A stretch of 62,316 nucleotides of DNA from Dehalococcoidia bacterium (GCA_003552465.1 PULQ01000025.1:1-62316), one strand, 5' to 3'; positions 2,409 to 19,920 are shown, numbered from the stretch's first letter. The notes: generated from the sequence alone by a model not told the origin. Numbers and translations: made by a program.

Positions 2409-2436
2409 GCATCTCCCGACGAAAGGAAGATCTCAT

Positions 2437-3671: not shown

Positions 3672-3806
3672 GTTCAAAACCCCCTTTTCCAGTAGTGCCC
3701 CAGCTCCTCACACAGCACAACTCATTGTGACGGGATGTACCGATGCCTGCCAGAACCCGTTGCGCTCGAAATCCCCAGAGCGCCCTCCCGGCTAATGTGC
3801 CATCAG

Positions 3807-4112
3807 CTAGGAACGGCCGCCGGGTTTGAGCTTGCTGTAGCAGTCGCTACAGTAGACAGGCCTGTCCTGCCGGGGCTCAAAAGGCACTTCACAGTCCTTG
3901 CCACACTCAGCGCAGACCGCGGAATGCATCTCGCGGCTGGCCCTGTAACCGCCGAAGCTGTTGCGCTGAGTCCTCCTGGCTTCGCGGCAGGCAGGGCAGC
4001 GCTTGGGTTCGTTCGCATATCCCTTGCCGGCATAGAACTCCTGCTCATCGGCAGTAAAAGTGAACGCGTTGCCGCAGTCCGAGCATTCCAGTGACTTGTC
4101 GGTGAAACCCAT
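3807..4112 (-). CDS. Zinc-ribbon protein with CxxC-x17-CxxC domain
   Basis: CSDC...F.FT..EQEFY..KG..NEPKRCPACR, then CAEC-x17-CSDC. RBS AAGGAGG. Confidence 0.9.
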   Translation of the reverse strand: MGFTDKSLECSDCGNAFTFTADEQEFYAGKGYANEPKRCPACREARRTQRNSFGGYRASREMHSAVCAECGKDCEVPFEPRQDRPVYCSDCYSKLKPGGRS

Positions 4113-4163
4113 TGGATGACCTCCTTTCGTTCAGTACTTGGCTAGAGCTTCGGTCATCCAACG
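4110..4163 (-). promoter_or_regulatory. 5' UTR hairpin masking the RBS end and start codon of the zinc-ribbon gene
   Basis: Minus strand CGTTGGATGACC (4163-4152) pairs with GGTCATCCAATG (4121-4110): 12 bp including one G-U. Confidence 0.6.
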
Positions 4164-4229
4164 TATGCAGACGCGAGCAGGATAACTGTCACAGAGGCGC
4201 GATAACCCAAACTTGTAACCACCGATTCA

Positions 4230-4258
4230 AGTATAGTCCAGGGCCTGGCAAAACGCAA
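4230..4258 (-). promoter_or_regulatory. Sigma70 promoter for zinc-ribbon/RRM genes
   Basis: TTGCGT-17-TATACT, implying a leader of about 110 nt. Confidence 0.55.
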
Positions 4259-4314
4259 CCGGCTGTAACGGTCGGCACGTATCACAGCTGACATCGGTCG
4301 ATGTCGCAGGATAA

Positions 4315-5295
4315 CTATATCCGGAACTCAATTATGTCTCCATCCTGGAGTGTATGTGTCTTGCTCCCCCTCTGCCCATCATACTTACCGGAGCCCCAGA
4401 CAACAGCGTACTTGAGATTCTCCCGGAAGTCCTTGTGAAGGCTCTCAGCGGCCTCTTCGACTGTGCTGCCCTTCTCCAGTATCATCGGATCCGACATGTC
4501 GACCTTGTCACCCGGAGTCTTGGTGTACACCCGGATGATGCTCAGTTCGTGAAAGACGGCCCTTCTGAACTCGTCGAGGCCCTGTCCTTCTTTTGCCGAT
4601 ATCGCGAGAATGGGAAACACGCCCGTGTATCTTGCGGCAAGCAGTCTCAGGTTCTGTCCGGAATCGGGCAGGTCGCTCTTGTTGCCCACTATGAACATCT
4701 TCCTGGGATAGGAGCCGGGCGTTGCCTGTGAACCATCCTCGGCCAGCGGTTCAATTCGGGCCTCTCCCAGTCCCTGGAGGGTTGCCTCCACCTGTGTGAC
4801 CGGTTCCTGGGATAGGTCAACTACAATGGCTATCAGATCGGCGCTTCTGAGAGGGTTTGCCAGCAGTACTCTCACCTCCTTGTGGCCGATGGGCGGGGTA
4901 TCCACCAGTTGGACCTGAATGTCCTCGTACCTCATCATGCCCGGAATTGGTATTTGCGTTGTGAAGGGGTAATCGGCTATTTCTGGCAGAGCCTCGGTGA
5001 CCGACGCGAGCAACTGCGACTTGCCGACGTTCGCCGGGCCCACCAGCATTACCTGCCCCGCACCTTCAGGCCTGATGTCGAAGCCGGTCCGCCTGGCCGT
5101 AGCTTGTTTCCTCTCGGCTTCCTGGGTTAGCTTTGCGATCTTGCGCCTCAGGTCGGCATGCAGCTTGTCTGTTCCCTTATGCTTGGGCATGATGGCCAGC
5201 ATGGTATGGAGCGCTGCGATCTTCTCGTCAGGCTCTTTGGCTAACCGATATCTCTTTTCCGCTTCGTGGTACTGCGGTGGCAGATTTGCCGGCAT
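4315..5295 (-). CDS. DRG/Obg-family GTPase with TGS domain
   Basis: MPANLPP start, G1 GPANVGKS, G2 YPFTT, G3 DTPP, G4 NKSD, TGS-like end VWGSGKYDGQ...LQDGDIIE. Confidence 0.92.
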   Translation of the reverse strand: MPANLPPQYHEAEKRYRLAKEPDEKIAALHTMLAIMPKHKGTDKLHADLRRKIAKLTQEAERKQATARRTGFDIRPEGAGQVMLVGPANVGKSQLLASVTEALPEIADYPFTTQIPIPGMMRYEDIQVQLVDTPPIGHKEVRVLLANPLRSADLIAIVVDLSQEPVTQVEATLQGLGEARIEPLAEDGSQATPGSYPRKMFIVGNKSDLPDSGQNLRLLAARYTGVFPILAISAKEGQGLDEFRRAVFHELSIIRVYTKTPGDKVDMSDPMILEKGSTVEEAAESLHKDFRENLKYAVVWGSGKYDGQRGSKTHTLQDGDIIEFRI

Positions 5296-5773: not shown

Positions 5774-6634
5774 CTACCTGCTCAGTCCGACTGTGTCGAT
5801 GGTTGGCCGACATACATCCACCAACAGCATCTGATTGCGTATGGGGACGCCCACTCCGGTGATTATCTTGACCACCTCCTGGACCTGGAGGGTCGCCATG
5901 ATCACGGGTGTGACTGAAGGGGTGCCGATCGAAGTCTCGATACCCTGTTCGGAGGAAGATCCCGGTGGCCCATAGATGCTTGACAGTCCGGGATCTTGAG
6001 GGAAGATGGTCATGATCTGCCCCCCAAGGCCTGCGATAGTTCCGTAGACGTAGGGTATTCGGAGGCTACGGCAGGCACCCTCGACTGCAAACCGCGATGC
6101 AAGGTTGTCAAGTCCGTCCACGACGACGCGGGCGTCCCTTAGCAGGTGGGCAGCATTGCTCGGCGTCAACCGTTCCTGGTGCGTCCTGACTTCAGTGGAT
6201 GAGTTGACAGCCGTGGCTCTTGCCGCCGCAACGACGGCCTTGGGCGCACCTAAGTCTCCCTCCGTTAACATGATCTGCCTGTTAAGGTCCGGCTCAGAGA
6301 AACGATCATCATCGATCACGATCACCCGCCCGACACCATGTCTGGCCAACAACTCGATGGTCGTGCCCCCCAGGCCTCCCGCTCCAACAACCGCGACGGT
6401 TGATTCCAGCATCCTTATCTGCCCGTTCAGGCCGATGGTTCCTGTGTTGCGGCTATAGCGCAGAGGAACTATCCCCTGCCTGAGAGCGGCCATCTCCACC
6501 TTCCTGAGCGCGATTCCCGACGATAGCGATATGGATCTGGCTGTGGCGAGGCTGATGACGGACTGTTCAGTGCCGTCGTCACGGAGCAGCGAGTCCGCCA
6601 GTCGCGCAATCTTGTTGACTATGTTCGGCTCCAT
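5774..6634 (-). CDS. ThiF/MoeB/HesA-family adenylyltransferase
   Basis: VAVVGAGGLG, DDDRFSEPDLNRQ, VVVDGLDN. N-terminal extension, no C-terminal CxxC pairs. Confidence 0.9.
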   Translation of the reverse strand: MEPNIVNKIARLADSLLRDDGTEQSVISLATARSISLSSGIALRKVEMAALRQGIVPLRYSRNTGTIGLNGQIRMLESTVAVVGAGGLGGTTIELLARHGVGRVIVIDDDRFSEPDLNRQIMLTEGDLGAPKAVVAAARATAVNSSTEVRTHQERLTPSNAAHLLRDARVVVDGLDNLASRFAVEGACRSLRIPYVYGTIAGLGGQIMTIFPQDPGLSSIYGPPGSSSEQGIETSIGTPSVTPVIMATLQVQEVVKIITGVGVPIRNQMLLVDVCRPTIDTVGLSR

Positions 6635-6829
6635 GGTGACTCTGCCGACAGGTGCGCCTCCATTCCTGTAGCTTCGGCTATGGCAAAATAGAGGTGCTGA
6701 CCGCCGGGATGAATGATATCAGAATGCAGGAAATCCGACACGAGACGAGATTCACAGGCGCTGAAGCGGCATATTATGATGTATAATGGGGCGGTCCAGG
6801 ATTGGAACTAAGTGAGAGGAGTTTAGTAC

Positions 6830-7240
6830 ATGGCAATCACATTTGGACCCCAGGAGTGGGCTGATGCACTGAAGCAGGCCATCGATGCCAGTCAGGCGTA
6901 CAAAGAGGCGGCTAAGAAGTGGGAGGGTGATATGTACATTATCATAGATCCCGATTCAGCCTACAGCCACAGGCATATCGTGTATCTTGATCTCTGGCAC
7001 GGAGAATGCCGCGAGGCACGTGTTGTTGAAGACGAGGGCGAGAAAGACCCGAAGTACCGGGTCTTCGGTCCGTTCACCAACATGAAGAAGATACTTGACA
7101 AAGAGGTTGATCCCGTCCGGTCTATGATGACCGGTAAGATAAGCGTCAAGGGAGATATGGTACAGATCATGCGGATGCCCAGAGCGGCGGTTGAACTGGT
7201 GAACTGCATGACCGCGTTTGAAACCGAGTTTCCGCAGTAG
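6830..7240 (+). CDS. SCP2 sterol/lipid-binding domain protein
   Basis: DPVRSMMTGKISVKGD motif, 136 aa, RBS GAGAGGAG. Confidence 0.85.
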   Translation: MAITFGPQEWADALKQAIDASQAYKEAAKKWEGDMYIIIDPDSAYSHRHIVYLDLWHGECREARVVEDEGEKDPKYRVFGPFTNMKKILDKEVDPVRSMMTGKISVKGDMVQIMRMPRAAVELVNCMTAFETEFPQ

Positions 7241-7340
7241 CCGACCTGAAGTCCCCGGCACCAGATCGACCGGCGATAGATGTCGGCACTTGACATAATA
7301 GTACTATCTGTATCGACGAATCAGGATAGGGGAGGTTCAT

Positions 7341-8510
7341 ATGTGGTACTTCGTGGCGCCTGAAGTGGTCTTCGGGCCGGATTCCTTGAGTCATCTCGCC
7401 GGGTTAGGGGCCAGATCCGCATTTATCGTTACCGACAAGAAGATAGTGGAGTTGGGGCTCACCGATCGTGTCATCGAGCAGCTTGCTCTGGCAGAGACAC
7501 GTGTGGTGGCGGTCTTCGACGATGTCGAGCCCGATCCATCGCTCCAGACGGTGCTCAAGGGCGTAGCGCTGGTTAACCAGCACTCGCCTGACCTGATCGT
7601 CGCTGTCGGTGGGGGATCGGTCATGGATGCTGCTAAGGCGATCAGGGTGCAGTATGAGCGGCCGGACATACCGCTCGAGGAGATAAACCCGTTCATAACG
7701 GACTTCGGCCTGGGCACAAAGTGCAGACTTGTCTGTATATCGACGACATCCGGTTCAGGTGCTGAGGCGACATTTGCCTTCGTAGTGACCGATACGGCGG
7801 ATCGGAGGAAGCTGAGCCTCATCAATCGACAGATTGCGCCCGACATCGCCATCGTTGACCCGGATATGGCCCGGGCCATGCCGCCTCAGATCACAGCGGA
7901 CACCGGGATGGATGTACTGACACATGCTGTGGAAGGGTACACATCCACATGGAAAAACGACTTTTCCGATGGGCTCTGCATGCGAGCAATACAGCTTGTC
8001 TTTCAGTATCTCACCCGGGCGGTGAAGGATGGCGACGACATGGAGGCTCGGGAGAAAATGCATAACGCGGCTTGCATTGCGGGCATAGGTTTCATAAACT
8101 CGTTTCCAGCTATGGCACATGCTGCCGGCCATTCTCTGGGTGCCGCGTTTCATGTGCCGCACGGCAGAGCGGTGGGATTGTTCCTTCCCTATACCATTGA
8201 GTTCGTCGGTGAAGCAGCGAGCGATCGCTGGACGGAGATCCTTCATACTGTCAAGCGCCCTGTTCCGCAGGGAGTACCGGCAGCGAGCGTGCTTGCCCGG
8301 ACGATTAGAGAACTTGCCGTTGAGATCAACCAGCCCGTTAGCATAAGGGAGACGGGAATTCCGTTAGACTCCTTTGGCGAAGCGATGGAGAAGCTAATCG
8401 ACAATGTCATGGCCGACGGCCAGTTAATAGTCAGCGCCAGGATACCTGATGCTGCAGAGACCGAGAGGTTTTTCAGGTACGCGTATGATGGAAAGAGCAT
8501 TGATTTCTAG
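7341..8510 (+). CDS. Iron-containing alcohol dehydrogenase
   Basis: GGGSVMDAAK, TTSGSGAE, DVLTHAVE, AHAAGH...HVPHG metal ligands. Confidence 0.93.
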   Translation: MWYFVAPEVVFGPDSLSHLAGLGARSAFIVTDKKIVELGLTDRVIEQLALAETRVVAVFDDVEPDPSLQTVLKGVALVNQHSPDLIVAVGGGSVMDAAKAIRVQYERPDIPLEEINPFITDFGLGTKCRLVCISTTSGSGAEATFAFVVTDTADRRKLSLINRQIAPDIAIVDPDMARAMPPQITADTGMDVLTHAVEGYTSTWKNDFSDGLCMRAIQLVFQYLTRAVKDGDDMEAREKMHNAACIAGIGFINSFPAMAHAAGHSLGAAFHVPHGRAVGLFLPYTIEFVGEAASDRWTEILHTVKRPVPQGVPAASVLARTIRELAVEINQPVSIRETGIPLDSFGEAMEKLIDNVMADGQLIVSARIPDAAETERFFRYAYDGKSIDF

Positions 8511-8652
8511 CGTCGCGCAGCGGAGCCGTTCAAGTAGTGTGGTGGTTTTAGACGGTTCATGGTGTGAAGCGGCTGGATGTTGGAAAAGACGAGTTCGAGA
8601 AGTAACAGCGATGTCTCGAAAGCTGTAGTATACAGGCAGAAGGAGCATTGTT

Positions 8653-10536
8653 ATGTTTGGCTACATGGGCAGGATTCTGAGAGTTGACCTTACAGACGGC
8701 AAAATCACGGAGGAGAGTCTGAACGAGGATGATTGCAGGATGTACCTGGGTGGAAGTGGACTGGCGACCAAGTATCTGTGGAACGAAGTGCCCGGAGGCG
8801 CGGATCCGCTTGGCCCCGAGAACGAGCTTATCTTCATGACCGGACCTCTCACGGGCACCGAGTCGCCCAGCGCAGGTAGGTACTGCGTTGTGACGAAGTC
8901 GCCTCTTACAGGCTTCTGGGCTGAGGCGAACTCAGGGGGCAGCTGGGGGGTGTATCTTAAGAACTCGGGGTTCGACGGGATTATCTTCAGGGGCATATCA
9001 CCAAAGCCGGTCTTTCTGGTGATCGACGACGGAAAGGCGGAACTGAGGGACGCGGGAGATCTCTGGGGTAAGGGTGTCAGTGAGACAGACAGGCTGATAA
9101 AGGAGGAACTGGGGGAGGACTTCAACGTTGCCTGCATCGGCATTGCGGGTGAGAACCTGGTTAAGTATGCCGCGATAATCAACGATGTACATCGAGCGGC
9201 CGGCAGGTGTGGGGTGGGCACGGTTATGGGGTCCAAGCGGTTGAAGGCTGTAGCCGCCGGAGGCACGCAGGAGATCAAGATTGCCAACCAGGAGGCCTTC
9301 AGCGAGACATCCAGGACAAACTACGACCTGATCAACGAGAGCATGCTGAAGATGACTTTGGAGACCTACGGCACGGCTATGAACACGGATCTTGTTAATG
9401 TGAGAGGCGGCTTTCCTACCAGGAACTGGCAGAGCGGCGTTTTCCCCGACATAGACAAGATAAGCGGGATCACGCTCGAGAGCACATTGCTGGTGGACAG
9501 GAAGCACTGTTATGCCTGTCCCATCAGTTGTTGCAGGGTCAGCGTGGTCAGGAGCGGTCCCTATGCGTGCAAAGGAGAGGGTCCGGAGTTCGAGACTATC
9601 GGAGCCTTCGGTGCTATGTGTGCGCTTGAGAATCTGGAGGCTGTCACACTTGCGCACAACCTCTGCGATGACTACGGGTTGGATGTCATCTCCGCCGGCA
9701 GCACAATAGCATTCGCTATAGAATGCTACGAAAAGGGGATTTTGACGAAGGATGATACCGGCGGGCTGGAGTTGAAGTTCGGTGACCCGTCCCCCGTCAT
9801 CGAGCTAGTACACCTTGTAGCGAAGAGAGAGGGCATTGGCGACCTGCTTGCGGAAGGAACCAGGAGAGTCGCGGCAAGCCTTGGCAAGGGCTCAGAGGAC
9901 TTCGCCATGCATGTAAAAGGACTGGAGTTGCCGGCGTATGATCCGAGAGCAGCCAAGATCTGCGGATTGGCATTCGCCACCGCCAACCGCGGCGGTGATC
10001 ATATGACGGCCTGGGTCGAAATGCCGGCGTTCATAGATGTGCCCATTCTGTGTGTTGAGGATAGCAGGATCGAAGACGCCATGGTTGAGAATCCCGCCGA
10101 GGCCAGGGTGCTGAAGGATCTTGAGGATGTTCTTACCGTATTCGACTGCGTCGGTACATGCAAGTTTATGGGCGTGGCGCTATCTGCTGAGGATTGGGTA
10201 GACATGATATCCAACTGCGTGGGCTGGGAGTTCAGCGTAAGCGATTTCAGAAGTGTCGGAGAGAGGGTTTACAATCTTGCCAGGGCCTTCAATGTGAGAG
10301 AAGGCCTGGTCAGGGCGGACGATACACTGCCCGGGAGGTTGCTGAACGAGCCATTGCCTGAAGGGGCGGCTGCCGGACACAAGGTGGAGAAGCTGGATGA
10401 GATGCTGGATGCCTACTACGAGTTTCGTGGTTGGGATAAGACGACAGGCAGGCCGACAGCAGAAAAGCTCAGAGAGCTCGGGCTGGACTATGTGATCGAT
10501 GTGATTGAGGGGTGTAACCATGGCCACTATTGCTGA
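8653..10536 (+). CDS. aor: Aldehyde:ferredoxin oxidoreductase (W-pterin AOR family)
   Basis: MFGYMGRILRVDL, KSPLTG, AAGRCGVG.VMGSK, CYACPISC, EGPEFET, DDYGLD. Confidence 0.93.
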   Translation: MFGYMGRILRVDLTDGKITEESLNEDDCRMYLGGSGLATKYLWNEVPGGADPLGPENELIFMTGPLTGTESPSAGRYCVVTKSPLTGFWAEANSGGSWGVYLKNSGFDGIIFRGISPKPVFLVIDDGKAELRDAGDLWGKGVSETDRLIKEELGEDFNVACIGIAGENLVKYAAIINDVHRAAGRCGVGTVMGSKRLKAVAAGGTQEIKIANQEAFSETSRTNYDLINESMLKMTLETYGTAMNTDLVNVRGGFPTRNWQSGVFPDIDKISGITLESTLLVDRKHCYACPISCCRVSVVRSGPYACKGEGPEFETIGAFGAMCALENLEAVTLAHNLCDDYGLDVISAGSTIAFAIECYEKGILTKDDTGGLELKFGDPSPVIELVHLVAKREGIGDLLAEGTRRVAASLGKGSEDFAMHVKGLELPAYDPRAAKICGLAFATANRGGDHMTAWVEMPAFIDVPILCVEDSRIEDAMVENPAEARVLKDLEDVLTVFDCVGTCKFMGVALSAEDWVDMISNCVGWEFSVSDFRSVGERVYNLARAFNVREGLVRADDTLPGRLLNEPLPEGAAAGHKVEKLDEMLDAYYEFRGWDKTTGRPTAEKLRELGLDYVIDVIEGCNHGHYC

Positions 10537-12208
10537 GAAACCATGGCTGAAGCAGTACAAGCTCGGACCCTATAAGCTTCCGCAGACGAAGGAGCCGTAT
10601 CCGGTTACGACGGTTCACAGTCTGCTTGACGCCACTGCGGCTGAGTATCCGGACAGGGTGGCCTGTTACTACCTGGGCAGAGAGATCCTGTACAGCGAGA
10701 TGAAGCAGTTCAGCGACAGCCTGGCTGCTGCGCTCGCAAACCTGGGAGTGACCAAGGGCGACAAGGTGGCTACCGTTCTGCCGAACTGCCCCCAGTTCAT
10801 GATAAGCGACTTCGGGATCATGAAGGCCGGGGCGGCGCATGTACCCTGCAGCGTGATGCACAGGGGGGCCGACCTGATCTATGAGATCGGAGAATCGGGG
10901 GCCGAGACGGTCATCTGTACCGATATGTCTCTGGACCTGGTGAACTCGGTAAGGGCGGAGACCCGCATCAAGAATGTCATCGTCAGCTCGTTGACGGACT
11001 ATTCGTCCGACGAGACTGATCCGAAGAAGCACCCGGATGCCCATGGATTCCGGGAGTTGATTGACAGCCACGGTCCCGAGCCTCCCGAGGTGGATATCGA
11101 TCCCATGACAGACCTGGCTGTTCTTCCCTTCACAGGAGGCGCTACGGGATTGCCCAAGGGAGTTATGCTGACCCACTATAACCGGGTGGTTGCTATAGTG
11201 CAGACGGCATGGTCTTATGAGCCTTTGAAGGTGGGCATCAGAGGGAAGGCTTCGGCCATGATACCCATCCCTCTGTTTCACGCCTACGGTCATCTTATGA
11301 TGCAGTTCGGGGTGTACTGGGGGCTGAAGGGCTATCTGCTGCCCGACCCGAGGGATACCGACACGCTGGTTCAGATGCTCATGAAGCATCGCCCCTTCTT
11401 CTGTGCCTGCGTGCCCACTCAGTATTCGCGACTGGTGGCGGCAGGACTGGGCAGACTGACCACGATGTTCATGTCGACGACGGCAGCGCTGGCGCCCGAG
11501 GTCGCGCAGAAGTTCAGGAAGGAGACGGGCGTGCCCATTACCGAGGCCTACGGCCTGACTGAGACCGGTGGTGCTACACATATCAACCTTTCGTCTTTCT
11601 CCAAGATCACCGGCTTTATGCCCTTCGAGAAGTTCGGGTCGATTGGGATTCCGCTGCCCGACACGGATGTGAGGATAGTCGATCTGGACACGGGGGAAGA
11701 CGTCGCTCCTGGCTGTGAGGGCGAACTATGGGTGCGAGGCCCACAGGTGATGATGGGATACTGGCCCGAGGCAGGCAAGGGCCTTGTCGACGGCTGGGTG
11801 CCCACGGGCGACGTGGTGAAGATGGAGGATGACGGGGATTTCTACATCACAGACCGTGTTAAGGACATGGCCAATATATCGGGACTGAAGGTCTACACCA
11901 GGCTGGTTGATGATGCCCTGTACGAGCACCCGGCGGTCGGCGATGCCGTTGCCATCGGGGTTCCCGACCCCGAGCGGGCAGGTAGTGAGAGGATCAAGGC
12001 CTTCATCCGGCTGAAAGAGGAATACGAAGGGCGGGTCACCGCTGAAGAGTTGATAGGGCATTGTCGGGAGAGGCTCCCGGCCTACGCGGTTCCCAAGTTC
12101 ATCGAGTTCAGAGAAGAGCTGCCTGTTACGGTCACGCTAAAGCTGTTCAAGAGGCAACTGAGAGAAGAGGAAGTGGCCAGGATGAAGGCCTCAGGTGAAT
12201 TGGGTTAG
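10520..12208 (+). CDS. Long-chain fatty acid-CoA ligase-like AMP-binding enzyme
   Basis: FTGGATGLPKG, YGLTE, GELWVRGPQVM.GYW, TGD, DRVKD. Overlaps the aor stop. Confidence 0.9.
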   Translation: MATIAEKPWLKQYKLGPYKLPQTKEPYPVTTVHSLLDATAAEYPDRVACYYLGREILYSEMKQFSDSLAAALANLGVTKGDKVATVLPNCPQFMISDFGIMKAGAAHVPCSVMHRGADLIYEIGESGAETVICTDMSLDLVNSVRAETRIKNVIVSSLTDYSSDETDPKKHPDAHGFRELIDSHGPEPPEVDIDPMTDLAVLPFTGGATGLPKGVMLTHYNRVVAIVQTAWSYEPLKVGIRGKASAMIPIPLFHAYGHLMMQFGVYWGLKGYLLPDPRDTDTLVQMLMKHRPFFCACVPTQYSRLVAAGLGRLTTMFMSTTAALAPEVAQKFRKETGVPITEAYGLTETGGATHINLSSFSKITGFMPFEKFGSIGIPLPDTDVRIVDLDTGEDVAPGCEGELWVRGPQVMMGYWPEAGKGLVDGWVPTGDVVKMEDDGDFYITDRVKDMANISGLKVYTRLVDDALYEHPAVGDAVAIGVPDPERAGSERIKAFIRLKEEYEGRVTAEELIGHCRERLPAYAVPKFIEFREELPVTVTLKLFKRQLREEEVARMKASGELG

Positions 12209-12292
12209 ACTTGCGGGTTCAACCTGGTGACGCGTTTTCACCGTGTGTTAAGAGGCGGCGCAGTGTGACTTCCGGGTGCCGCGGTACCAGAT

Positions 12293-13420
12293 ATGCCGAG
12301 CTACGAAGATCTAGAATCCAGGATCATTGACTCCGGAGAGTGCACCGTCTGCGGTGCCTGCGTTGTCGCCTGTCCGACGGCCCATGTGAAGCTCATCGAT
12401 GGCAGGCCAAGGCGGCCCAAACGCGCTATGGATTGTGTGGGTTGCAGCATCTGCTATGAAGCTTGTTACATGCTCAGGCACAGCCTGATCAAGGATATTG
12501 AGGGTGCCGTTATCGGTCGAGGAAAGAAAGAGAGCGTCGGGCTTTACATGCGCGCAGTGCTGGCGAGGACAACCGATGATGTGGTTGCCGACAGATGCCA
12601 GGATGGTGGGGTTGTGACTACGCTACTCCTGTATGCGCTGGAGAGCGGCATTATGGACGGCGTGCTGGTGGTCGGCAGAGACGGCTGGACTCCCACCGCC
12701 TATGTAGCAAGGACCAGGGAGGAGATAATGGAGGCGGCAGGTACCAAGTACGGCGTCGTGCCCGTGTTGAGTAAGCTGAGGGAGGCCGTTGTCGACCATG
12801 GATTGACCAAGATCTGGGTCGTGGGATCGCCATGTCATATACAGTCGATCAGATATCTCAAGCACAAGGGTTTGCCGCTGGCAACGTCGGTTCAGGTTAT
12901 GGTTGGCCTCTTCTGCAGGGAGAACTACGAGTATAACTGCATGGAGGAGCTGGTCAGGGCTCAGGGTGTCGAGATGAGCCAGGTCGATAGGCTGGAGGTA
13001 TACGATGAGTTCCGTGTATACGCAGATGGGAACAGGATGGACCTGCCTGTTACCGATATCAAGGATTGCGTGCCCCGGCATTGCCTTGTCTGCCGTGACT
13101 TCGCTGCCGAGCTTGCCGATATCGCCGCAGGTAGCGGGGGCTCCTACGGAGGCCGGTCAACCGTCATAGTCAGGAGTGTGAAGGGTGAGGAGGTCTTCGC
13201 CGGGATGGAGCAGTCGGGGCTGATCAGTACAGAGTCCGACGGATACGCGCCTGAGATCAGCGAGATTGCCGAAAGGAAGAGCGAAAAGGCGAAGCAAACC
13301 GGTGATATATTTCGGCTCGCCGAGAAGGGCCTTAATGAGAAGGAGATCTCCGATAGGCTCGGCATAACCGAGAGAAGGGTATCTCACCGACTGCGCGGTG
13401 CACGTCGGAACACCTCCTGA
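12293..13420 (+). CDS. FrhB/FdhB-like (F420 hydrogenase/dehydrogenase beta) protein with 2x[4Fe-4S] and C-terminal HTH-like segment
   Basis: CTVCGACVVAC, CVGCSICYEAC, QDGGVVT, GTKY, GSPCHI, GLFC, C..C.DF. Tail GLNEKEISDRLGITERRVSHRL. Confidence 0.85.
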   Translation: MPSYEDLESRIIDSGECTVCGACVVACPTAHVKLIDGRPRRPKRAMDCVGCSICYEACYMLRHSLIKDIEGAVIGRGKKESVGLYMRAVLARTTDDVVADRCQDGGVVTTLLLYALESGIMDGVLVVGRDGWTPTAYVARTREEIMEAAGTKYGVVPVLSKLREAVVDHGLTKIWVVGSPCHIQSIRYLKHKGLPLATSVQVMVGLFCRENYEYNCMEELVRAQGVEMSQVDRLEVYDEFRVYADGNRMDLPVTDIKDCVPRHCLVCRDFAAELADIAAGSGGSYGGRSTVIVRSVKGEEVFAGMEQSGLISTESDGYAPEISEIAERKSEKAKQTGDIFRLAEKGLNEKEISDRLGITERRVSHRLRGARRNTS

Positions 13421-13499
13421 ACACAACCGCGCGGTCTTGTGTAGAGCGCCTGCTTACAGATGGCAGATACCGGAAATAGACTAGATAGGAGGAAACACT

Positions 13500-13877
13500 G
13501 TGGAGAAGACTACCTATGAGATCGATGGATTTGCCAGGGGGGCGCCGTACTCACATGTTGTCGAGGCGGGTGGCTTCCTGTTCGTCTCCGGAGTTCTCCC
13601 CATCGATGTCGGGAAGAACCTGAAGATAACCGACGACGTAAAGGCGGCTACCGAACTGGTGCTCAGCAACGTGAAGCTGGCGCTTGAGTCGACTGGCAGC
13701 GATCTCGACAGGGTCGTCAAGGTTACCATCTTTCTGCGGGACATGGCCGATTTCAGCGCCATGAACGAGGTCTACAGGGCCTTCTTCCCCGTCAACCCGC
13801 CCGCTCGTTCTTGCATTGCCGTAAGGGAGGTTCCGGGTAACTACCCTGTGGAGATCGAAGCTATTGCCATCAAGTGA
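13500..13877 (+). CDS. RidA/YjgF family imine deaminase
   Basis: PYSH, FLFVSG.LP, VVKVTIFL.DM.DF..MNEVY, PARS, VEIEAIA. Confidence 0.92.
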   Translation: MEKTTYEIDGFARGAPYSHVVEAGGFLFVSGVLPIDVGKNLKITDDVKAATELVLSNVKLALESTGSDLDRVVKVTIFLRDMADFSAMNEVYRAFFPVNPPARSCIAVREVPGNYPVEIEAIAIK

Positions 13878-13956
13878 CGGATGAAGTGGCCGTCTAGCCC
13901 GGTATGCCGTTAGGAGGGCCACCCGCTGGGTGCCACCAGGTACATAGGAGGTTGCC

Positions 13957-16374
13957 ATGAGTGAAAGCACAGTGTTGCCGGAGATGACGATCGAGTCGTT
14001 CCCCAGGTTGTCGAAGCTCTATGACGACCTGCTATCGGCAAGGAAGGAGGTCTGCATCCAGAGGGCCCGCCATATCACGGACTTCATGAAGGGATCGGAT
14101 GTCTGGTTCATGCCTCCGGTGTTCAGGAGAGCCCGAGCAGTGGCTCACATTCTGAAGAACCTCGATGTGGGGATACATCCCGATGAGCTGTTGGTTGGCA
14201 GTATCACCAGCAAGCGGGTGGGAGCCGTCATCTATCCAGAGTTTGTCGGTGTCCTGATCTGGCCGGAACTAGCGAATCTGCGAGAACGAGCGGTGGATGC
14301 GTTCGACATCAGCGATGATGAGATCAAGGAGTTGGAGCAGGACATCTTTCCGTTCTGGATGGATAAGGTTCTGGCCTGGCATGCTCAGGAGTTCCTGTCG
14401 CCACCACAGCCCATGTCTCTCTTGTTCAAAGGGGGCTTCTTCGTGCTGACCGAAGCGGCAGGGATCTCACATACCGCTCCCGACTTTGAGAAACTGTTAC
14501 GTGTGGGGCTGGATGGCATCAAAGAGGAGGCAGGTGAAAAGGTCCGCGAGATGGATGCCGATCCCGTGGGTGATCCTGAGCGGTTCAGAGAACGCGCCTT
14601 CTACCGTGCTGTCCAGGTATCCTGTGATGCCGTCGTAGAGTTCGCCGGCAGGCACCACGCTGAGGCACTCAGACTCGCTGAACTGGAGACGGACAGCGAG
14701 AAGAAGGATGAACTGCTGGAGATCGCCCGTATCTGTGCCAAGGTGCCGGCCGGGCCGGCCACATGCTTCCGCGAGGCTCTGCAGAGCATATGGTTCCTCG
14801 AGATCGCTCTGCATCAGGAGAACTACGAGCAGGCTTTGTGCCCTGGTCGGGCAGACCAGTATCTCTATCCTTACTACCGGGATGATCTTGAGAAGGGACT
14901 CATCACCGCGGAGCAGGCCGTTGAGTTGCTCGGGTGCCTGTCTGTAAAGATGTCCGAGTTCGTCCCGCTGTTTGCCGAGAATCTCGCCACGCTGTTCAGT
15001 GGCTTCCCGGCCAATCCGTCGGTCACGATCGGCGGCGTGACTGCTGATGGTGCCGATGCTACGAATGAGCTTAGCTATCTGTTTCTGAAGACTAGAGAAC
15101 TGGTCAAGACCAGGCACCCCAATCTCCATGCTAGAGTACACGGGCAGTCGCCTCCTCAATACCTTGAGAGAATCTGCGAGGTAATCAAGGATGGCGGAGG
15201 AATGCCGGGCCTCGTCAACGACGATGTGGTTGTGCCTGCGCTTATGGCCAAGGGGATAACGGAGTCGGATGCTCGTGACTATGTGATCATCGGCTGCGTG
15301 GAGATATCGGTTCCCAGGAAGACCTTCGGCTCAACCGATGCCGCCTTGATGAGTCTGCCGGTCTGTCTCGAGATGGCTCTGAACAACGGCTGTAGTCCGG
15401 TCATGCAGGAGGAGGTCGGAGTGAAGACGGGCGATCCGAGGGAGTTCAGGGGAATGGATGACGTTCTCGGTGCTCTTCGAAATCAGATATCATACGTGGT
15501 GGAGCAGATGGTCATCGGCCTGAACGTCCTGGGCATTGCTCATAGGGAGCTATACCCCAGTCCCCTGCTGTCCTCTCTGATAGAGGGGTGTATTGACACC
15601 GGGAAGGACGTCACGGCCGGCGGTGCTGTGTACAACTTCACTGGCGTCCAGGGTGTGGGTGTGGCCGACGTTGCCGACTCACTGGCAGCCATTGACCGGT
15701 TGGTGTTCGCGGACAAGAAGGTAACGATGGATGAACTGCTGAAGGCTCTGGAGGACAACTTCGAGGGCCACGAGCGGCTTCATCAGTTGATAGTGAACAG
15801 GGTTCCCAAGTACGGCAATGACGATGAGCTTCCCGATAGGTATGCCAGGGAGGTTGCCGAACTCTTCTGTGGGGAAGTGGCGAAGCATCGTAATCCCAGA
15901 GGCGGAGCCTACTTGCCGGGGTTCCTGAGTATGACCAATCACAAAGGCTTCGGCAAGTTCGTCGGCGCATTGCCCAGCGGTAGAAGGGCCCTTGAGAGCC
16001 TCTCCAACGGCATATCGCCGTGCGACGGCGTGGATAGGAAAGGTCCGACCGCCTATCTCAAGTCGGTGGCAAAGGTCGACTACTCCCAGGCCACCAATGG
16101 AGTAGCGGTGAATCTGAAGTTCAACCCAACTTATCTCAGGGGTGCCGTCGGTACGGGGAACCTCGGTTCGCTGATCAGGGCCTACTTCGGGCTGGGCGGT
16201 ATGCACCTGCAGGTGAATGTGGTCGACAGGGAGACCCTTCTTGATGCCCAGAGGAACCCGGCGAAGCATGCCGGGCTTATGGTCAGGGTGGCCGGCTATT
16301 CGGCTTACTTCGCAGATCTGAGTCGAGAGGTACAGGACGAGATCATAGCCAGAACCGAGCATTGCTCTCAGTAG
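13957..16374 (+). CDS. Glycyl radical enzyme, PFL2/PflD-like, substrate unknown
   Basis: Gly loop RVAGYSAYF, Cys loop GCVEI, PDELLVGS, GRADQYLYP, PKYGND. 805 aa. Confidence 0.92.
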   Translation: MSESTVLPEMTIESFPRLSKLYDDLLSARKEVCIQRARHITDFMKGSDVWFMPPVFRRARAVAHILKNLDVGIHPDELLVGSITSKRVGAVIYPEFVGVLIWPELANLRERAVDAFDISDDEIKELEQDIFPFWMDKVLAWHAQEFLSPPQPMSLLFKGGFFVLTEAAGISHTAPDFEKLLRVGLDGIKEEAGEKVREMDADPVGDPERFRERAFYRAVQVSCDAVVEFAGRHHAEALRLAELETDSEKKDELLEIARICAKVPAGPATCFREALQSIWFLEIALHQENYEQALCPGRADQYLYPYYRDDLEKGLITAEQAVELLGCLSVKMSEFVPLFAENLATLFSGFPANPSVTIGGVTADGADATNELSYLFLKTRELVKTRHPNLHARVHGQSPPQYLERICEVIKDGGGMPGLVNDDVVVPALMAKGITESDARDYVIIGCVEISVPRKTFGSTDAALMSLPVCLEMALNNGCSPVMQEEVGVKTGDPREFRGMDDVLGALRNQISYVVEQMVIGLNVLGIAHRELYPSPLLSSLIEGCIDTGKDVTAGGAVYNFTGVQGVGVADVADSLAAIDRLVFADKKVTMDELLKALEDNFEGHERLHQLIVNRVPKYGNDDELPDRYAREVAELFCGEVAKHRNPRGGAYLPGFLSMTNHKGFGKFVGALPSGRRALESLSNGISPCDGVDRKGPTAYLKSVAKVDYSQATNGVAVNLKFNPTYLRGAVGTGNLGSLIRAYFGLGGMHLQVNVVDRETLLDAQRNPAKHAGLMVRVAGYSAYFADLSREVQDEIIARTEHCSQ

Positions 16375-16384
16375 GACTGTAACC

Positions 16385-17287
16385 ATGTCGGAGGGCGCCA
16401 CAGTTTTCGACCTGCAGCGCTTCTCTATACACGACGGTCCCGGCATCAGAACCGTTGTCTTCTTCAAGGGCTGTCCGCTTCAGTGCCTGTGGTGTCAGAA
16501 TTCGGAGGGCCTGGACCCTGAGCCTGAGATCAGCTTCTCGAAGGAGAGGTGCCTGGGTTGTCGGGAATGCCAACCTTCATGCCCATTGCAGGCGATCGTC
16601 TTCAATGGAGATGGGCGCATCAACCGCCAGCTTTGTGATCGCTGCGGCAGGGGCACCGAAGCCTGCCATTCGGGTGCCCTTGAACTCGTCGGCAGGCGCT
16701 ACTCTCCGCAGGAGTTGCTGGAAGAGGCCATGGATGATCTGCCCTTCTTCGTAGCATCGGGTGGCGGCATCACCCTCTCGGGAGGCGAGCCTACCTGCCA
16801 GGCTGAGTTCCTGTCCGAGTTTCTTCCACTGTGTAAGGAGCAGGGGCTCAATGTCGCTATGGAGACATGTGGCTACGTGGCCTACCAGAAACTGGAGCCG
16901 CTGCTTCCCTTCCTGGACCTGGTTCTGTACGATGTCAAGGCCGTTGACCCGGCGCTGCACCGGCGTCTCACCGGGAAGGATAACGCTGTGATACTGAAGA
17001 ACCTGGTGCGGCTTCTTGAAAAGCAAAGGTGCAGGATCAGGGTCAGGGTGCCTCTGGTTCCGGGCATGACATCGACGGACAGGAACCTTAGGGACATCAT
17101 TGGCTTTCTTAAGAAACATCGCGTCGACGAAGTGTCACTTGTCCCCTACCACAGGATGGGGGAGAGTAAGCTGGAAAAGATCGACAGCCCGCTGAAACCG
17201 CTGAATCTGGCCGGGGCCGATGATCGAGATATGGAAGCTGCAGCAGGCCTGTTTCGTGTTAGTGGCATTGAAGTCCTGGACCCGTGA
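16385..17287 (+). CDS. Glycyl-radical activating enzyme (radical SAM) with ferredoxin insert
   Basis: HDGPGIRTVVFFKGCPLQCLWCQN, CLGCRECQPSC, GGITLSGGEP, directly after the GRE. Confidence 0.95.
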   Translation: MSEGATVFDLQRFSIHDGPGIRTVVFFKGCPLQCLWCQNSEGLDPEPEISFSKERCLGCRECQPSCPLQAIVFNGDGRINRQLCDRCGRGTEACHSGALELVGRRYSPQELLEEAMDDLPFFVASGGGITLSGGEPTCQAEFLSEFLPLCKEQGLNVAMETCGYVAYQKLEPLLPFLDLVLYDVKAVDPALHRRLTGKDNAVILKNLVRLLEKQRCRIRVRVPLVPGMTSTDRNLRDIIGFLKKHRVDEVSLVPYHRMGESKLEKIDSPLKPLNLAGADDRDMEAAAGLFRVSGIEVLDP

Positions 17288-17321: not shown

Positions 17322-17350
17322 TTGACCTATCGGTACCGATACACTAAAAT
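17322..17350 (+). promoter_or_regulatory. Sigma70 promoter with perfect 14-bp palindrome in the spacer
   Basis: TTGACC-17-TAAAAT. Spacer contains TATCGGTACCGATA (17328-17341). Confidence 0.6.
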
Positions 17351-17362
17351 GGCATCTCAGTT

Positions 17363-18244
17363 GTGAACCCGGATGCTATTCAGCAAGACATAGAGCCTGC
17401 TCTTCGTGATCTTCCCGATCGACTCTGTTCTGGTGCCGCGCACCGCAATGATGGAAGGGTGGACCTGGATTGGGACGATGACCATGTGCTTCCCCCGAAG
17501 GTCTACCCGGACATAGCTCACCTTTTCCGAAGGATGACCGATGTCACAGTCGGGGCTGTGGGTGTGGTGGAGCAGGAACTTGTGCTTGATATCGGGTGTG
17601 GCAGGGCGGTTGATGCCATAGAACTGGCCAGGAAGGGAGGGCTGTGCTCAGGACTTGAGCCGTCGGGGAGGATGATATCGCACGCCCGGCTGCATACCTC
17701 CCGGAACGGTGCTTCGGTCAACCTCGCCCGTGGAGTAAGTGCACACCTGCCGTTCAAGACAGGTTCGTTCGACAAGATACTCTGCAAGGGAGCTCTGGAT
17801 CACTTCTGCCATTTGGACGAGGCGATCGCCGAAATGGCCCGGGTGCTCAAGCCAGGGGGGCGGGCGGTGATCGCCACTGCCAACTTCGAGAGCCTCGGGT
17901 TCAGGACCGGAAGACGGTTGTTCGCACTGATGCGTTTTCTGCGCAGAGAGAAGGCGGATGACGGTCATTTCTGGCAGATACCCGATGACCATACCATCAA
18001 GCTGGACTACGGCACCCTCAGGCGTCTGGTAAGCCCTCATTTCAGGGTAGAGCGTGCCGAGGGTATATCGTTGCTGGTCGGACTGCCTGGCTGGAGTTCG
18101 CTGCTTGATAGATTGCCGCAGAGGCTTTCTGCTCTTTCGCTGACGGCCCTGGACGGGTTGGCCAGGCATTTGCCTTCGCTCAGCAATGTCATCGTCATCA
18201 GGTGCGTGCCCAGGGCGAATCCTACCTCTTCGTCAACAGAATAG
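17363..18244 (+). CDS. Class I SAM-dependent methyltransferase
   Basis: VLDIGCG, LPFKTGSFD, RVLKPGG. Confidence 0.85.
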   Translation: MNPDAIQQDIEPALRDLPDRLCSGAAHRNDGRVDLDWDDDHVLPPKVYPDIAHLFRRMTDVTVGAVGVVEQELVLDIGCGRAVDAIELARKGGLCSGLEPSGRMISHARLHTSRNGASVNLARGVSAHLPFKTGSFDKILCKGALDHFCHLDEAIAEMARVLKPGGRAVIATANFESLGFRTGRRLFALMRFLRREKADDGHFWQIPDDHTIKLDYGTLRRLVSPHFRVERAEGISLLVGLPGWSSLLDRLPQRLSALSLTALDGLARHLPSLSNVIVIRCVPRANPTSSSTE

Positions 18245-18863
18245 AGGAGATGCCGTAGTCCCCGACTATCTCGTGCCGATCCAGTATGTCATCTTTGTGC
18301 TCATCCATCAGTTCGTCTACCGCCTCGGTCACCTCCGGCCAGTCGTCGAACCTGTAATCGTGAAAGCCAATGATACCTCCCGATACCAGGTGTGGCCAGA
18401 TGAGGCGGAAGTCGCTCTTCACACAGTCCTTCTGGTGACAACCATCGACGAAGGCGAAGACGAATCTAGTTTCCTCGTCCAGGACCACCCTTCTGGAGTC
18501 CTCTATGATCGTGACGATGTTGGGAAGACGCCTCGTCGCCTCTCTGTATACCTCCCACATGGAGCGCCCTTTCAGAAATGCACGGTAGACCTCGGCTGCC
18601 GGCACTGTGCTCTTGCTCACTGTGGTGTCCATGTCGGGGTCGAAGGTGTCGATGACATACACTCTCTTATCGTGCCTGGCTGCCAGTCTTGCCAGCTTCA
18701 CCGTACCACCGCCCATGTAGGCTCCGACCTCTATGAGGTCGCCTTCCATCTGCATCAGCCCCTGTCTCGTTATGAAGGCGATGAGGTTATCGTAGCCGAC
18801 GAACTCGGGTGGCGGGCGCTTCAGCCCCGGTATTCTGTGCCAGATATCGGCGATGCGGACCAA
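18222..18863 (-). CDS. Class I methyltransferase (Methyltransf_24-like), positional equivalent of MMP OrfD
   Basis: IEVGAYMGG, VIDTF, FAFVDGCH, LVSGGIIGFHDY. Confidence 0.75.
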   Translation of the reverse strand: MVRIADIWHRIPGLKRPPPEFVGYDNLIAFITRQGLMQMEGDLIEVGAYMGGGTVKLARLAARHDKRVYVIDTFDPDMDTTVSKSTVPAAEVYRAFLKGRSMWEVYREATRRLPNIVTIIEDSRRVVLDEETRFVFAFVDGCHQKDCVKSDFRLIWPHLVSGGIIGFHDYRFDDWPEVTEAVDELMDEHKDDILDRHEIVGDYGISSILLTKR

Positions 18864-18872
18864 GTCAACCTC

Positions 18873-19916
18873 TCACGGAAACCTGGTGAAGACCCTGCTT
18901 CGGGTAGCTTGAGGGTTCGCGATCTCAAGCTGGCTGCTGAGCGCGATGACCATCGCCGCTGAGACCCAAGTCGGTTTCTCCTCCGGGGGCCAGATCTCCT
19001 CCTCGGGCATCTTCATGCCCGTCCAGAAGCGCCCATCGTCATCTCTGAGTTCCAGGGCCCAGTCCAGGAGGGTCCTTGCCCTGTGGCTCTCGCCGATACG
19101 GTTCAGTGCCAGGACGAGTTCGCAGGTCTCGGCCACAGTTATCCCCCATGGTTCCTCCACCACACACTTGCACCCCCGGCCGTCGACAACGAAATCCGAC
19201 CACTTCTCGTAGATGCGCTCTCTGGCCTCCCCTCCCCTCACTATGCCGGTGAGAACGGGATAGTACCAGGACATCGCATAGTCATATTGACTGTCGACCG
19301 AGTTATGGAACAGCTCCGGTTGTTCGCTGACCGCATGTGCCAGTCTGCGGCTGGCAGCATGCCAGCGGGGCTTGTCGGTCTGCAGGAGTCTGGCTACCTT
19401 GATCCCACATCGCAGACTCTGGTAGATGGAGCTGGACCCTGCTATTAGCGCCAGAGGATAGACTGCCCCGTGCGGGTCACGAGCCCAGTAGATATGGCCG
19501 GGCGGCTGCTGCAGTTGCAGGGCGAAGTCGAGCCCTCTCTCCACCGTCGGCCACATCTCGGCAACGAAGCCCCTGTTCCGGGTTATCATGTAGTGATACC
19601 ACAGCCCGACTGCGGGATAGGAGCTGTAGTTGGTGTCTTTGGTCAGATCGCAGGGTTCATCTCCCATATAGCTGGAGTACCAGCTCCCGTCGTCGTTCTG
19701 AGCGCCGCGCAACCAGCGGTATGCCCTCTCGGCTTCTTCGTGTCTTCCCGACGCATCCAGAGCTATCGCACACTCGACGTGATCCCACGGGTCGGCAATG
19801 CCCGTGTCATACCACGGTATAATGCCCGACGGTAGCTGGGTACGGCCTATGTGGTCGGCCTGCTGCTCTATCAGGCAATCGATCTCCGACCGTGTTAACT
19901 CTTGTCTCAGATCCAC
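18873..19916 (-). CDS. Alpha/alpha-toroid glycoside hydrolase-like protein (MmpH-like)
   Basis: IPW...DPWDHVECA.AL, Q..DGSW, DTN, MWP.V, SIYQSLRC, MSWYYP, AETCEL, FWTG, match recalled mycobacterial MmpH-type motifs. Confidence 0.75.
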   Translation of the reverse strand: MDLRQELTRSEIDCLIEQQADHIGRTQLPSGIIPWYDTGIADPWDHVECAIALDASGRHEEAERAYRWLRGAQNDDGSWYSSYMGDEPCDLTKDTNYSSYPAVGLWYHYMITRNRGFVAEMWPTVERGLDFALQLQQPPGHIYWARDPHGAVYPLALIAGSSSIYQSLRCGIKVARLLQTDKPRWHAASRRLAHAVSEQPELFHNSVDSQYDYAMSWYYPVLTGIVRGGEARERIYEKWSDFVVDGRGCKCVVEEPWGITVAETCELVLALNRIGESHRARTLLDWALELRDDDGRFWTGMKMPEEEIWPPEEKPTWVSAAMVIALSSQLEIANPQATRSRVFTRFP

Positions 19917-19920
19917 GGAA

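Follow-up and report, generated by a model that had tools for sequence, protein, structure and literature searches.

A putative eliminase-type glycyl radical enzyme joined to a predicted SCP2-led module for alcohol and aldehyde oxidation in Dehalococcoidia

The locus and its two modules

A stretch of 62,316 nucleotides (nt) from a Dehalococcoidia bacterium (GCA_003552465.1, PULQ01000025.1:1-62316), analysed at its full length and hereafter called the window, derives from contig C52 of a 1.8-Mb metagenome-assembled genome (MAG; G000) that is 87% complete. Positions 6830-17287 are filled by eight genes on the + strand encoding, in order, an SCP2-fold protein, an iron-type alcohol dehydrogenase (Fe-ADH), an aldehyde:ferredoxin oxidoreductase (AOR), an acyl-CoA ligase, an FrhB-like protein, RidA, a glycyl radical enzyme (GRE) and a GRE-activating enzyme (activase). 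The genes were called by listing open reading frames (ORFs) and by profile searches with Pfam and NCBIfam, which bore out the initial annotation in its description of eight co-directional and closely spaced genes. This predicted 10.5-kb operon is a composite of two modules, each conserved separately: the five genes from SCP2 to FrhB (module 1) and the genes for the GRE and its activase (module 2). Its features are the following (aa, amino acids).

6751-6780, + strand: promoter-like site TTCACA-18-TATGAT ahead of the SCP2 gene, 10/12 consensus matches (consensus match only)
6830-7240, + strand: predicted SCP2-fold lipid-carrier protein, 136 aa, first gene of module 1 (Pfam PF02036, E 4.5e-9)
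7341-8510, + strand: iron-type alcohol dehydrogenase (Pfam Fe-ADH and ADH_Fe_C)
8653-10536, + strand: AOR, tungsten type by sequence (Pfam AFOR_N, E 9.5e-82; AFOR_C, E 1.8e-139)
10520-12208, + strand: AMP-forming acyl-CoA ligase, 562 aa, start revised (Pfam AMP-binding)
12293-13420, + strand: FrhB-like flavo-iron-sulfur protein with an N-terminal 2x[4Fe-4S] domain, last gene of module 1 (Pfam Fer4 and FrhB_FdhB_N/C)
13500-13877, + strand: RidA-family imine/enamine deaminase (TIGR00004, 113.4 bits, above the family cut-off of 106.25)
13957-16374, + strand: GRE, 805 aa (Pfam PF02901, PFL-like, E 1.4e-197; PF01228, Gly_radical, E 5.3e-33)
16385-17287, + strand: GRE-activating radical SAM enzyme with a ferredoxin-like insert (TIGR02494, 311 bits against a cut-off of 174; Radical_SAM and Fer4)
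17322-17350, + strand: promoter-like site just 3' of the activase gene, 10/12 consensus matches (consensus match only)

The two promoter-like sites are the only ones with 10 of 12 matches on the + strand between 6400 and 19200, and a search for terminators inside the cluster gave no convincing candidate. The AOR and ligase genes overlap by 17 nt, the activase gene lies 10 nt 3' of the GRE gene, as befits a cognate activase, and the remaining gaps measure 75-142 nt. The start of the ligase was shifted from TTG 10505 to ATG 10520 because the orthologue in a related locus (L081) agrees with it and because it produces the 17-nt overlap with the AOR stop; ATG 10520 is most likely the true start, and the ligase is predicted to be translationally coupled to AOR. 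In the MAG, the SCP2, Fe-ADH, AOR, FrhB-like, RidA and GRE genes of the cluster are sole genomic copies, and the ligase has eight paralogues.

A search of 400 genomes of the class separated the two modules. Where public records name the relatives, these are Dehalococcoidia MAGs. In the genus of the window, none of the five other species has a relative of the GRE or a PFL-like domain anywhere in its genome. Three of these five (G364, G376 and G240) carry SCP2, ADH, AOR, ligase and FrhB in the same order next to a ThiF gene, with proteins about 57-87% identical to those of the window, and the run stops after FrhB. SCP2 orthologues of 57-79% identity head the GRE-less modules at five loci (L135-L139), and the five-gene module also occurs in two other families, f39 and f50 (G361 and G282). 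Its same-strand neighbours in G282 are genes for an acyl-CoA dehydrogenase, a second SCP2, two Fe-S proteins, a zinc ADH and an enoyl-CoA hydratase. Because the five-gene set occurs without a GRE and beside these acyl-CoA genes, SCP2-ADH-AOR-ligase-FrhB is an autonomous module tied to acyl-CoA metabolism, and the SCP2 of the window belongs to this module rather than to the SCP2-like lineage that accompanies the GRE elsewhere. The catabolic character that the initial annotation gave to the cluster agrees with the place of the ADH-AOR-ligase set beside beta-oxidation genes in another family. The annotation's view that the cluster was built around the GRE does not hold, since module 1 occurs without any GRE in genomes of the same genus.

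The G282 locus (L139, G282:C6, 1287-14946) holds two further proteins, an unknown 229-aa protein within the run and a PEMT/ICMT-like membrane methyltransferase on the opposite strand; the second SCP2 there measures 111 aa.

The joint arrangement of module 1, RidA, GRE and activase is found in the window and at L081, L082/L083 and L090, whose GREs are 75-82% identical, and it persists while the GRE has diverged to 75% identity (L081, L082 and L090). The fifth of the other species of the genus, G340, has a clean deletion of about 9.65 kb that corresponds to window positions 6371-16020 and runs from inside ThiF to GRE residue 688 (L125, G340:C67:17000-28000, positions 6288-8191). A start-less C-terminal fragment of the GRE (78% identical), an intact activase ORF of 301 aa and a shortened ThiF remain, with no GRE left; these remnants indicate that the joint arrangement was formerly present in G340. 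Beyond the close relatives, the GRE keeps only an SCP2-like gene at its side, in some cases with the activase gene as well. Kilobases separate the AOR or ADH genes from the more distant GREs of L005, L006, L069, L071 and L134, and many of these genes are on the opposite strand or in housekeeping surroundings, so that they were not counted as support.

In every GRE-bearing cluster of the joint type, the RidA gene separates FrhB from the GRE, and the module-1-only clusters lack it. A census of PF01042 in 15 related genomes found no RidA in four of the five same-genus genomes, in most of the family and in four other genomes with a GRE of the same clade (G295, G331, G343 and G259), three of which are 68-80% complete. 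The idea that RidA is a housekeeping gene placed here by chance was rejected since it is missing from most of the 15 genomes; it is accessory and travels only with the GRE-bearing form of one sub-lineage.

The cluster is flanked upstream by a divergent ThiF gene and downstream by a methyltransferase gene. The latter has its own promoter-like site and is followed, within 17363-21867, by a convergent operon encoding Methyltransf_24, an unknown 347-aa protein, a methyltransferase and a GT4 glycosyltransferase. This convergent operon adjoins the GRE-bearing cluster at L081, L082 and L090 and its remnant in G340, and stands on other contigs in the same-genus genomes that have module 1 only.

Proteins of module 1

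The SCP2 protein scores 37 bits against PF02036 (cut-off 21.3) and thus falls within the SCP2 family. Its AlphaFold2 model (pLDDT 83) has as top Foldseek match the Thermus SCP2 2CX7 (E 1.7e-11, TM 0.74), and the SCP2 domains of an alkylsulfatase, UbiJ and MFE-2 appear lower in the list; on the strength of the model, it is predicted to be a lipid carrier. It shares its fold with the SCP2 domains found on enzymes that handle hydrophobic substrates (the alkylsulfatases SdsA1 and Pisa1, MFE-2 and UbiJ) and with the free-standing bacterial SCP2 of Thermus (2CX7), and it is placed as the partner of an enzyme. The partners here are the GRE and the ADH/AOR/ligase set, neither of which is paired with SCP2 in the GRE review of June 2026 (PMC13450708), and ligand binding is a prediction.

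The closest solved structure to the Fe-ADH is the ADH domain of AdhE (3ZDR). For the AOR, the nearest structure is Pyrococcus furiosus AOR (1AOR, 520 bits), which ranks above FOR, WOR5 and the benzoyl-CoA reductase BamB, so that the enzyme would be a true AOR of the tungsten type. The best NCBIfam matches of the ligase are long-chain fatty-acid-CoA ligases, every one of them under its cut-off.

The FrhB-like protein matches chains 8RIU_B and 8RJA_E over nearly its full length, its residues 4-331 aligning with residues 9-340 of 8RIU_B. These chains are zeta subunits from Ca. Ethanoperedens that dock on CODH and Fwd and divert electrons to F420 (PMC11493965). The two kinds of protein have the same ferredoxin domain, FrhB-type FAD/[4Fe-4S] domain and C-terminal extension, and each has its gene next to that of an enzyme whose normal partner is ferredoxin; here that enzyme would be the tungsten AOR. 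By this analogy, the FrhB-like protein is probably the electron outlet of AOR. The acceptor, F420 in the zeta subunit, may be another one here, as neither CofE (PF01996) nor CofD (PF01933) was found in the 87%-complete MAG, both being detected in archaeal control genomes. The ferredoxin and FrhB N/C domains of an F420-reducing module are therefore present, F420 itself is not seen to be available, and F420 is not claimed as the acceptor. A weak HTH_23 match (E 4.9e-4) at about residues 339-367 of the C-terminus coincides with the dimerisation extension of the Ca. Ethanoperedens zeta subunit (residues 350-370), which makes DNA binding by the FrhB-like protein doubtful. The pairing of AOR with an FrhB-like protein is a second, smaller lead, and may represent an aldehyde oxidoreductase that is independent of free ferredoxin.

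The glycyl radical enzyme and its SCP2-family partners

The segment RVAGYSAYFADLSREVQDEIIAR of the GRE fits the glycyl radical fingerprint RVxG[FWY]x6-8[FL]x4Qx2[IV]x2R given in the GRE review (PMC13450708), which places the protein in the GRE superfamily. Its key residues are GCVE at 446-449 (Cys447-Val-Glu449), His172, Asp461 and Gly780, the last in the glycine loop RVAGYSAYF. Every NCBIfam equivalog score lies well under its cut-off (HpsG 628 vs 1000, HypD 592 vs 1100, CutC 578 vs 1050, HpfG 558 vs 1000 and PflD-type 567 vs 1109), so that the enzyme belongs to none of the CutC, HypD, HpsG and HpfG families; the sole NCBIfam model that it passes is TIGR01774, which covers the broad PFL2/glycerol-dehydratase subfamily. 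The best match in the PDB is Archaeoglobus fulgidus PFL2 (AfPFL2, 2F3O; 625 bits, 41.7% identity), followed by 1,2-propanediol dehydratase (PD, 40.7%), 9RCO (39.7%) and glycerol dehydratase (GD, 38.9%), and no solved GRE exceeds 42%. Scores of 317 bits against MasD (9O8U) and 274 against BSS, compared with about 600 for dehydratases, set it apart from the X-succinate synthases (BSS, MASS), and genes for their Fe-S or rubredoxin small subunits were not seen among the cluster ORFs of at least 80 aa.

In a tree of 205 sequences, built with FastTree only and including four PDB sequences that were hand-copied from alignments and may hold small errors, the window GRE falls in a clade of 61 leaves (clade A; support 100) whose sequences are at least 62% identical and whose named members all come from Dehalococcoidia or Chloroflexota. 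Clade A is separate from the clade of GD, PD and 9RCO and sits in a large uncharacterised superclade with the AfPFL2/Archaeoglobus/Thorarchaeota group and a clade of SCP2-fused GREs. Considering the identities, this position and the motifs described below, the enzyme is not a member of the glycerol/1,2-propanediol dehydratases, and it belongs to no characterised family. The initial annotation was therefore right to treat it as uncharacterised, and the outcome that it had named as speaking against its reading, a GRE grouped with a characterised hydrophilic-substrate family with all specificity residues intact, was not encountered.

Conservation was read from an alignment of 112 GRE relatives, 50 of them from clade A, with active-site positions mapped to GD.

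Cys447: equivalent to GD Cys433, invariant in 112/112
Glu449: equivalent to GD Glu435, invariant in 112/112
His172: equivalent to GD His164 and PD His166, invariant in 112/112
Asp461: equivalent to GD Asp447, invariant in the 50 clade A members
Ala293: equivalent to GD Ser282, fixed in clade A
Phe350: equivalent to GD Tyr339, in 45/50 clade A members
Leu657: equivalent to GD Tyr640, fixed in clade A; Tyr or Trp in the other aligned relatives
Met659: equivalent to GD Ser642, fixed in clade A

Glu435 of GD takes the proton of the C1 hydroxyl, and His164 supplies one to the departing C2 hydroxyl (PMC13450708). The GRE has the single Cys of the Cys-x-Glu motif together with the acid His equivalent to GD His164, a position occupied by Asp in CutC, and is thus predicted to keep the catalytic apparatus of a C-O-cleaving 1,2-eliminase, in line with the eliminase type originally assigned to it; the Cys-x-Glu motif occurs in GRE isomerases as well (PMC13450708). 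The surroundings of these residues differ. The GD/PD motif ESxGHSISP is replaced by ENYEQALCP, and GCVEPQxPGxTxGWHD by GCVEISVPRKTFGSTD, in which GWHD becomes GSTD. The substitutions listed above suggest a distinct pocket, richer in hydrophobic residues and strongly conserved in clade A.

Compared with GD (C. butyricum, 1R8W) and PD (R. inulinivorans, 5I2A), the GRE is alike in fold, glycine-loop fingerprint, Cys-x-Glu motif and the retained His and Asp, and the GD/PD systems likewise have an activase with a ferredoxin-like insert and downstream enzymes that handle aldehydes. The aldehyde is taken by a CoA-acylating aldehyde dehydrogenase there and would be taken by a tungsten AOR and an AMP-forming ligase here, where SCP2-family partners are present and microcompartment genes are not. 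With AfPFL2/PflD, the GRE shares the HQENYEQA stretch, the GCVEI(S/A) Cys loop and the superclade; AfPFL2 stands in another, archaeal and Asgard clade and has Tyr at position 657 in place of Leu.

This GRE lineage is repeatedly accompanied by SCP2-family proteins, encoded at the head of the operon, encoded by an adjacent gene or fused to the N-terminus; their recurrence in these three forms makes the hydrophobic substrate suggested by the initial annotation plausible. The first form is that of the window. For the second, a gene for a protein of 142-147 aa lies just upstream of the GRE gene, about 16 nt away in most cases, at six clade A loci that are non-syntenic with the window and whose GREs are 67-72% identical to its own (L001, L002, L085, L088, L089 and L126). 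The Pfam SCP2 match of these proteins is weak (E 0.01-0.07), and hhalign links their family to the window-type SCP2 family over the full length with a probability of 98.9% (E 1.6e-17). For the third, SCP2 forms the N-terminal domain in a sister clade of GREs of about 930 aa, and the truncated protein P0130 is the same fusion with an SCP2 nearer the window type. The window genome has a single SCP2-like gene, located in module 1, and therefore its GRE is without a partner of its own type and stands in an operon that supplies another SCP2. No SCP2 was found near the unfused sisters of the fused clade (L093 and L094), and none was detected by profile at three Archaeoglobus loci (L026, L039 and L043). 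At L059, an SCP2 gene follows a Thorarchaeota GRE at a distance of 1.8 kb; it stands amid genes for a PfkB kinase and KDPG aldolase and was not counted.

Accessory subunits are known for three GREs only, and all are HiPIP-like [4Fe-4S] or rubredoxin-like proteins (PMC13450708), namely HPAD gamma, BSS beta/gamma and MASS beta/gamma/delta. As in those cases, the SCP2 partner is a small protein beside or fused to the catalytic subunit, and by analogy it may sit at the substrate channel; it differs in having no cluster-binding cysteine motif. The GRE review (PMC13450708) mentions no SCP2 partner and no lipid substrate. Literature searches on glycyl radical enzymes with SCP2, ether lipids or Dehalococcoidia, and on Dehalococcoidia with formate lyase and AOR, returned nothing relevant.

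Several further arrangements were observed around the relatives. L001 has tandem GRE genes (592-3003 and 3037-4779), the first being a clade A member with the SCP2-like gene ahead and the second a more distant paralogue cut by the contig end. At L084, in the complete genome CP070667.1, a stop-to-stop frame with PKD domains (8846-9982) lies just upstream of the GRE; the match of its end to the SCP2-like partner is confined to the C-terminal third of the latter, as if the partner gene had been disrupted or remodelled, and no activase adjoins this GRE. A DUF362 protein of about 460 aa is encoded beside the SCP2-fused GRE at L087 (12842-14233), and DUF362 proteins are also encoded within a few kilobases of the unfused sisters (L093, 4138-5511; L094, 2617-4026); none of these three loci has an activase nearby, and at L094 a geranylgeranyl-reductase-like FAD protein follows directly 3' of the GRE. 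The SCP2 lipid-carrier fold is also paired with a radical enzyme of another kind: the 820-aa protein P0201, a B12-binding radical SAM enzyme, ends in an SCP2 domain of the same subfamily.

Proposed reaction, competing explanations and meaning

We propose that the GRE attacks a hydrophobic vicinal diol or 2-alkoxy alcohol at its polar head by radical 1,2-elimination, with SCP2 presenting the substrate and module 1 making acyl-CoA, a proposal that we consider about equally apt to be right or wrong. The sequences show directly which genes are present, how they group into modules, that the catalytic residues are conserved and that SCP2 is linked to the GRE lineage; from these we infer what type of reaction takes place, that the substrate is hydrophobic, that one module hands over to the other and what the FrhB-like protein does. 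The activase would install the radical on Gly780 and so give rise to a thiyl radical on Cys447, which would take a hydrogen from the carbinol carbon in the polar head of the substrate, while Glu449 would deprotonate the carbinol hydroxyl and His172, backed by Asp461, would protonate the neighbouring oxygen leaving group, either hydroxyl or alkoxy. A vicinal diol would yield a long-chain aldehyde by this 1,2-elimination, and a 2-alkoxy alcohol such as a glycerol ether would yield an aldehyde and a fatty alcohol. The SCP2 of module 1, which is presumably the one used by the GRE, would hold the water-insoluble alcohol or aldehyde. ADH would convert the alcohol to the aldehyde, AOR the aldehyde to the acid, with electrons leaving via the FrhB-like protein instead of, or besides, free ferredoxin, and the ligase the acid to acyl-CoA for beta-oxidation. 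The MAG holds 10 acyl-CoA dehydrogenase and 3 thiolase matches, and therefore acyl-CoA from the cluster has an outlet.

A more specific version holds that the clade A GREs and their SCP2 partners form an oxygen-independent lyase for the heads of ether-linked or diol-headed membrane lipids, with 1-O-alkylglycerols, archaeol-type cores and long-chain 1,2-diols as candidates. SCP2 would lift the lipid from the membrane, the GRE would cut the C-O bond beside a free hydroxyl, and ADH, AOR and ligase would feed the freed chain into beta-oxidation. We regard this version as quite unlikely.

Several observations weigh against the proposed elimination on a hydrophobic substrate. Its main weakness is that the link between module 1 and module 2 comes from one lineage with syntenic flanks. 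The neighbourhood conservation on which the initial annotation had set store is accordingly divided: the order is kept at L081, L082/L083 and L090, and in more distant clade members (L001, L002, L084-L086, L088 and L126-L128) the GRE does not stand next to ADH, AOR, ligase or FrhB. Module 1 works without a GRE in species of the same genus, so that the adjacency could be a historical accident. The SCP2 of the window is 18-23% identical to the GRE-adjacent SCP2-like proteins and is not their orthologue, and no SCP2-like gene was found near the GRE at L086, L127 and L128. The Fe-ADH most resembles enzymes for short chains (AdhE, FucO and 1,3-propanediol dehydrogenase), and RidA is without a role in the scheme. 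Finally, the substrate-contact positions were mapped to GD by sequence alignment, with Ser282, Tyr339, Tyr640 and Ser642 taken as the residues that contact the substrate in GD and PD.

Part of this evidence invites the explanation that the modules are independent and merely adjacent, module 1 oxidising fatty alcohols or aldehydes and the GRE acting on an unrelated, possibly hydrophilic substrate. Module 1 stands alone in G364, G376 and G240, which lack any GRE, the GRE occurs without ADH, AOR and ligase in relatives 63-72% identical to it, and the synteny of the joint-arrangement relatives, whose flanks are shared too, may mean only recent common descent. Yet the joint order has been kept during the divergence of the GRE to 75%, the genes lie on one strand with short gaps and promoter-like sites at the two ends only, and the GRE here has lost the SCP2-like partner of most clade members while sitting in an operon that supplies an SCP2. 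Moreover, eliminase-type GREs release aldehydes (PMC13450708), the type of substrate that AOR uses. On balance, independence of the modules is unlikely. That RidA stands after FrhB and ahead of the GRE in the window and at L081, L082/L083 and L090, and that its distribution is accessory rather than housekeeping, suggests instead that the GRE of this sub-lineage might dehydrate a hydrophobic beta-hydroxy amine to an enamine or imine, which RidA would convert to an aldehyde and ammonia ahead of AOR and ligase. GRE dehydration beside nitrogen has precedents in HypD, HpyG and HpzG (PMC13450708). Six positions are fixed in the RidA-linked sub-lineage relative to the rest of clade A (L99V, Y142H, F159G, L163V, L299A and F346L), most of them changed to smaller residues, with F159G and L163V a few residues before the His172 loop. 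Against this, RidA is lacking in G295, G331, G343 and G259 (with the completeness of three of them as given above), so that the amino-alcohol idea loses strength for clade A taken together; the conserved His172 suits a reaction in which the leaving group is protonated on oxygen, clade A has an almost identical active-site signature throughout, and RidA may have come with the same rearrangement and be unneeded. An amino-alcohol substrate thus appears decidedly unlikely.

The conserved catalytic His, Cys-x-Glu and Asp of GD and PD would also suit a dehydratase of a small soluble diol, such as glycerol or 1,2-propanediol, with the SCP2-like proteins as structural subunits that have no lipid role, and both the short-chain resemblance of the Fe-ADH and the pairing of an ADH with an aldehyde oxidiser recall propanediol and glycerol utilisation. 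We give this only a slim chance, considering that the GD/PD motifs are replaced, that Ser282/Tyr339/Tyr640 have become Ala/Phe/Leu, that clade A is separate in the tree, that the best matches of the ligase are long-chain fatty-acid ligases, that microcompartment genes are absent and that the SCP2 fold serves hydrophobic ligands wherever its function is known (SCP2, MFE-2, UbiJ and alkylsulfatases among the Foldseek matches). The function of AfPFL2, the best PDB match, is unknown and debated between GD and MASS (PMC13450708), and addition of an alkane or alkene to fumarate, as proposed for the related Archaeoglobus PflD/PFL2, would fit a lipid carrier and a CoA ligase in hydrocarbon metabolism. 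This reaction is very improbable for the window GRE, which keeps Cys-x-Glu and the dehydratase His, scores far lower against MasD and BSS than against dehydratases and has no small-subunit genes among the cluster ORFs of 80 aa or more; AOR and ADH would have no role after an alkylsuccinate.

The original interpretation is thus partly supported: an uncharacterised GRE with a hydrophobic substrate is reasonable, a GRE-centred cluster is not, and the substrate classes that it named (long-chain diol, glycerol ether and amino alcohol) are speculative candidates. Relative to published knowledge, the novelty lies in a putative eliminase-type GRE family whose kind of partner and metabolic setting are both new, the known eliminase substrates being small and soluble compounds, namely glycerol, propanediol, choline, hydroxyprolines and sulfonates (PMC13450708). 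The locus gives an unannotated GRE branch a concrete and testable context, in the form of a predicted lipid-carrier partner and a complete candidate route from alcohol or aldehyde to acyl-CoA that is conserved in its own right, and it adds natural variants in which one module is present and the other absent, as well as a deletion allele. If elimination on a hydrophobic diol or alkoxy alcohol is the true reaction, it would provide the abundant Dehalococcoidia of sediments and the subsurface with an oxygen-free attack on greasy alcohol-type compounds, and the search for substrates would be narrowed for the whole PFL2-like superclade. If the enzyme were indeed a lipid lyase, it would be the first demonstrated case of a GRE with a lipid substrate, and subsurface Dehalococcoidia could consume persistent ether lipids.

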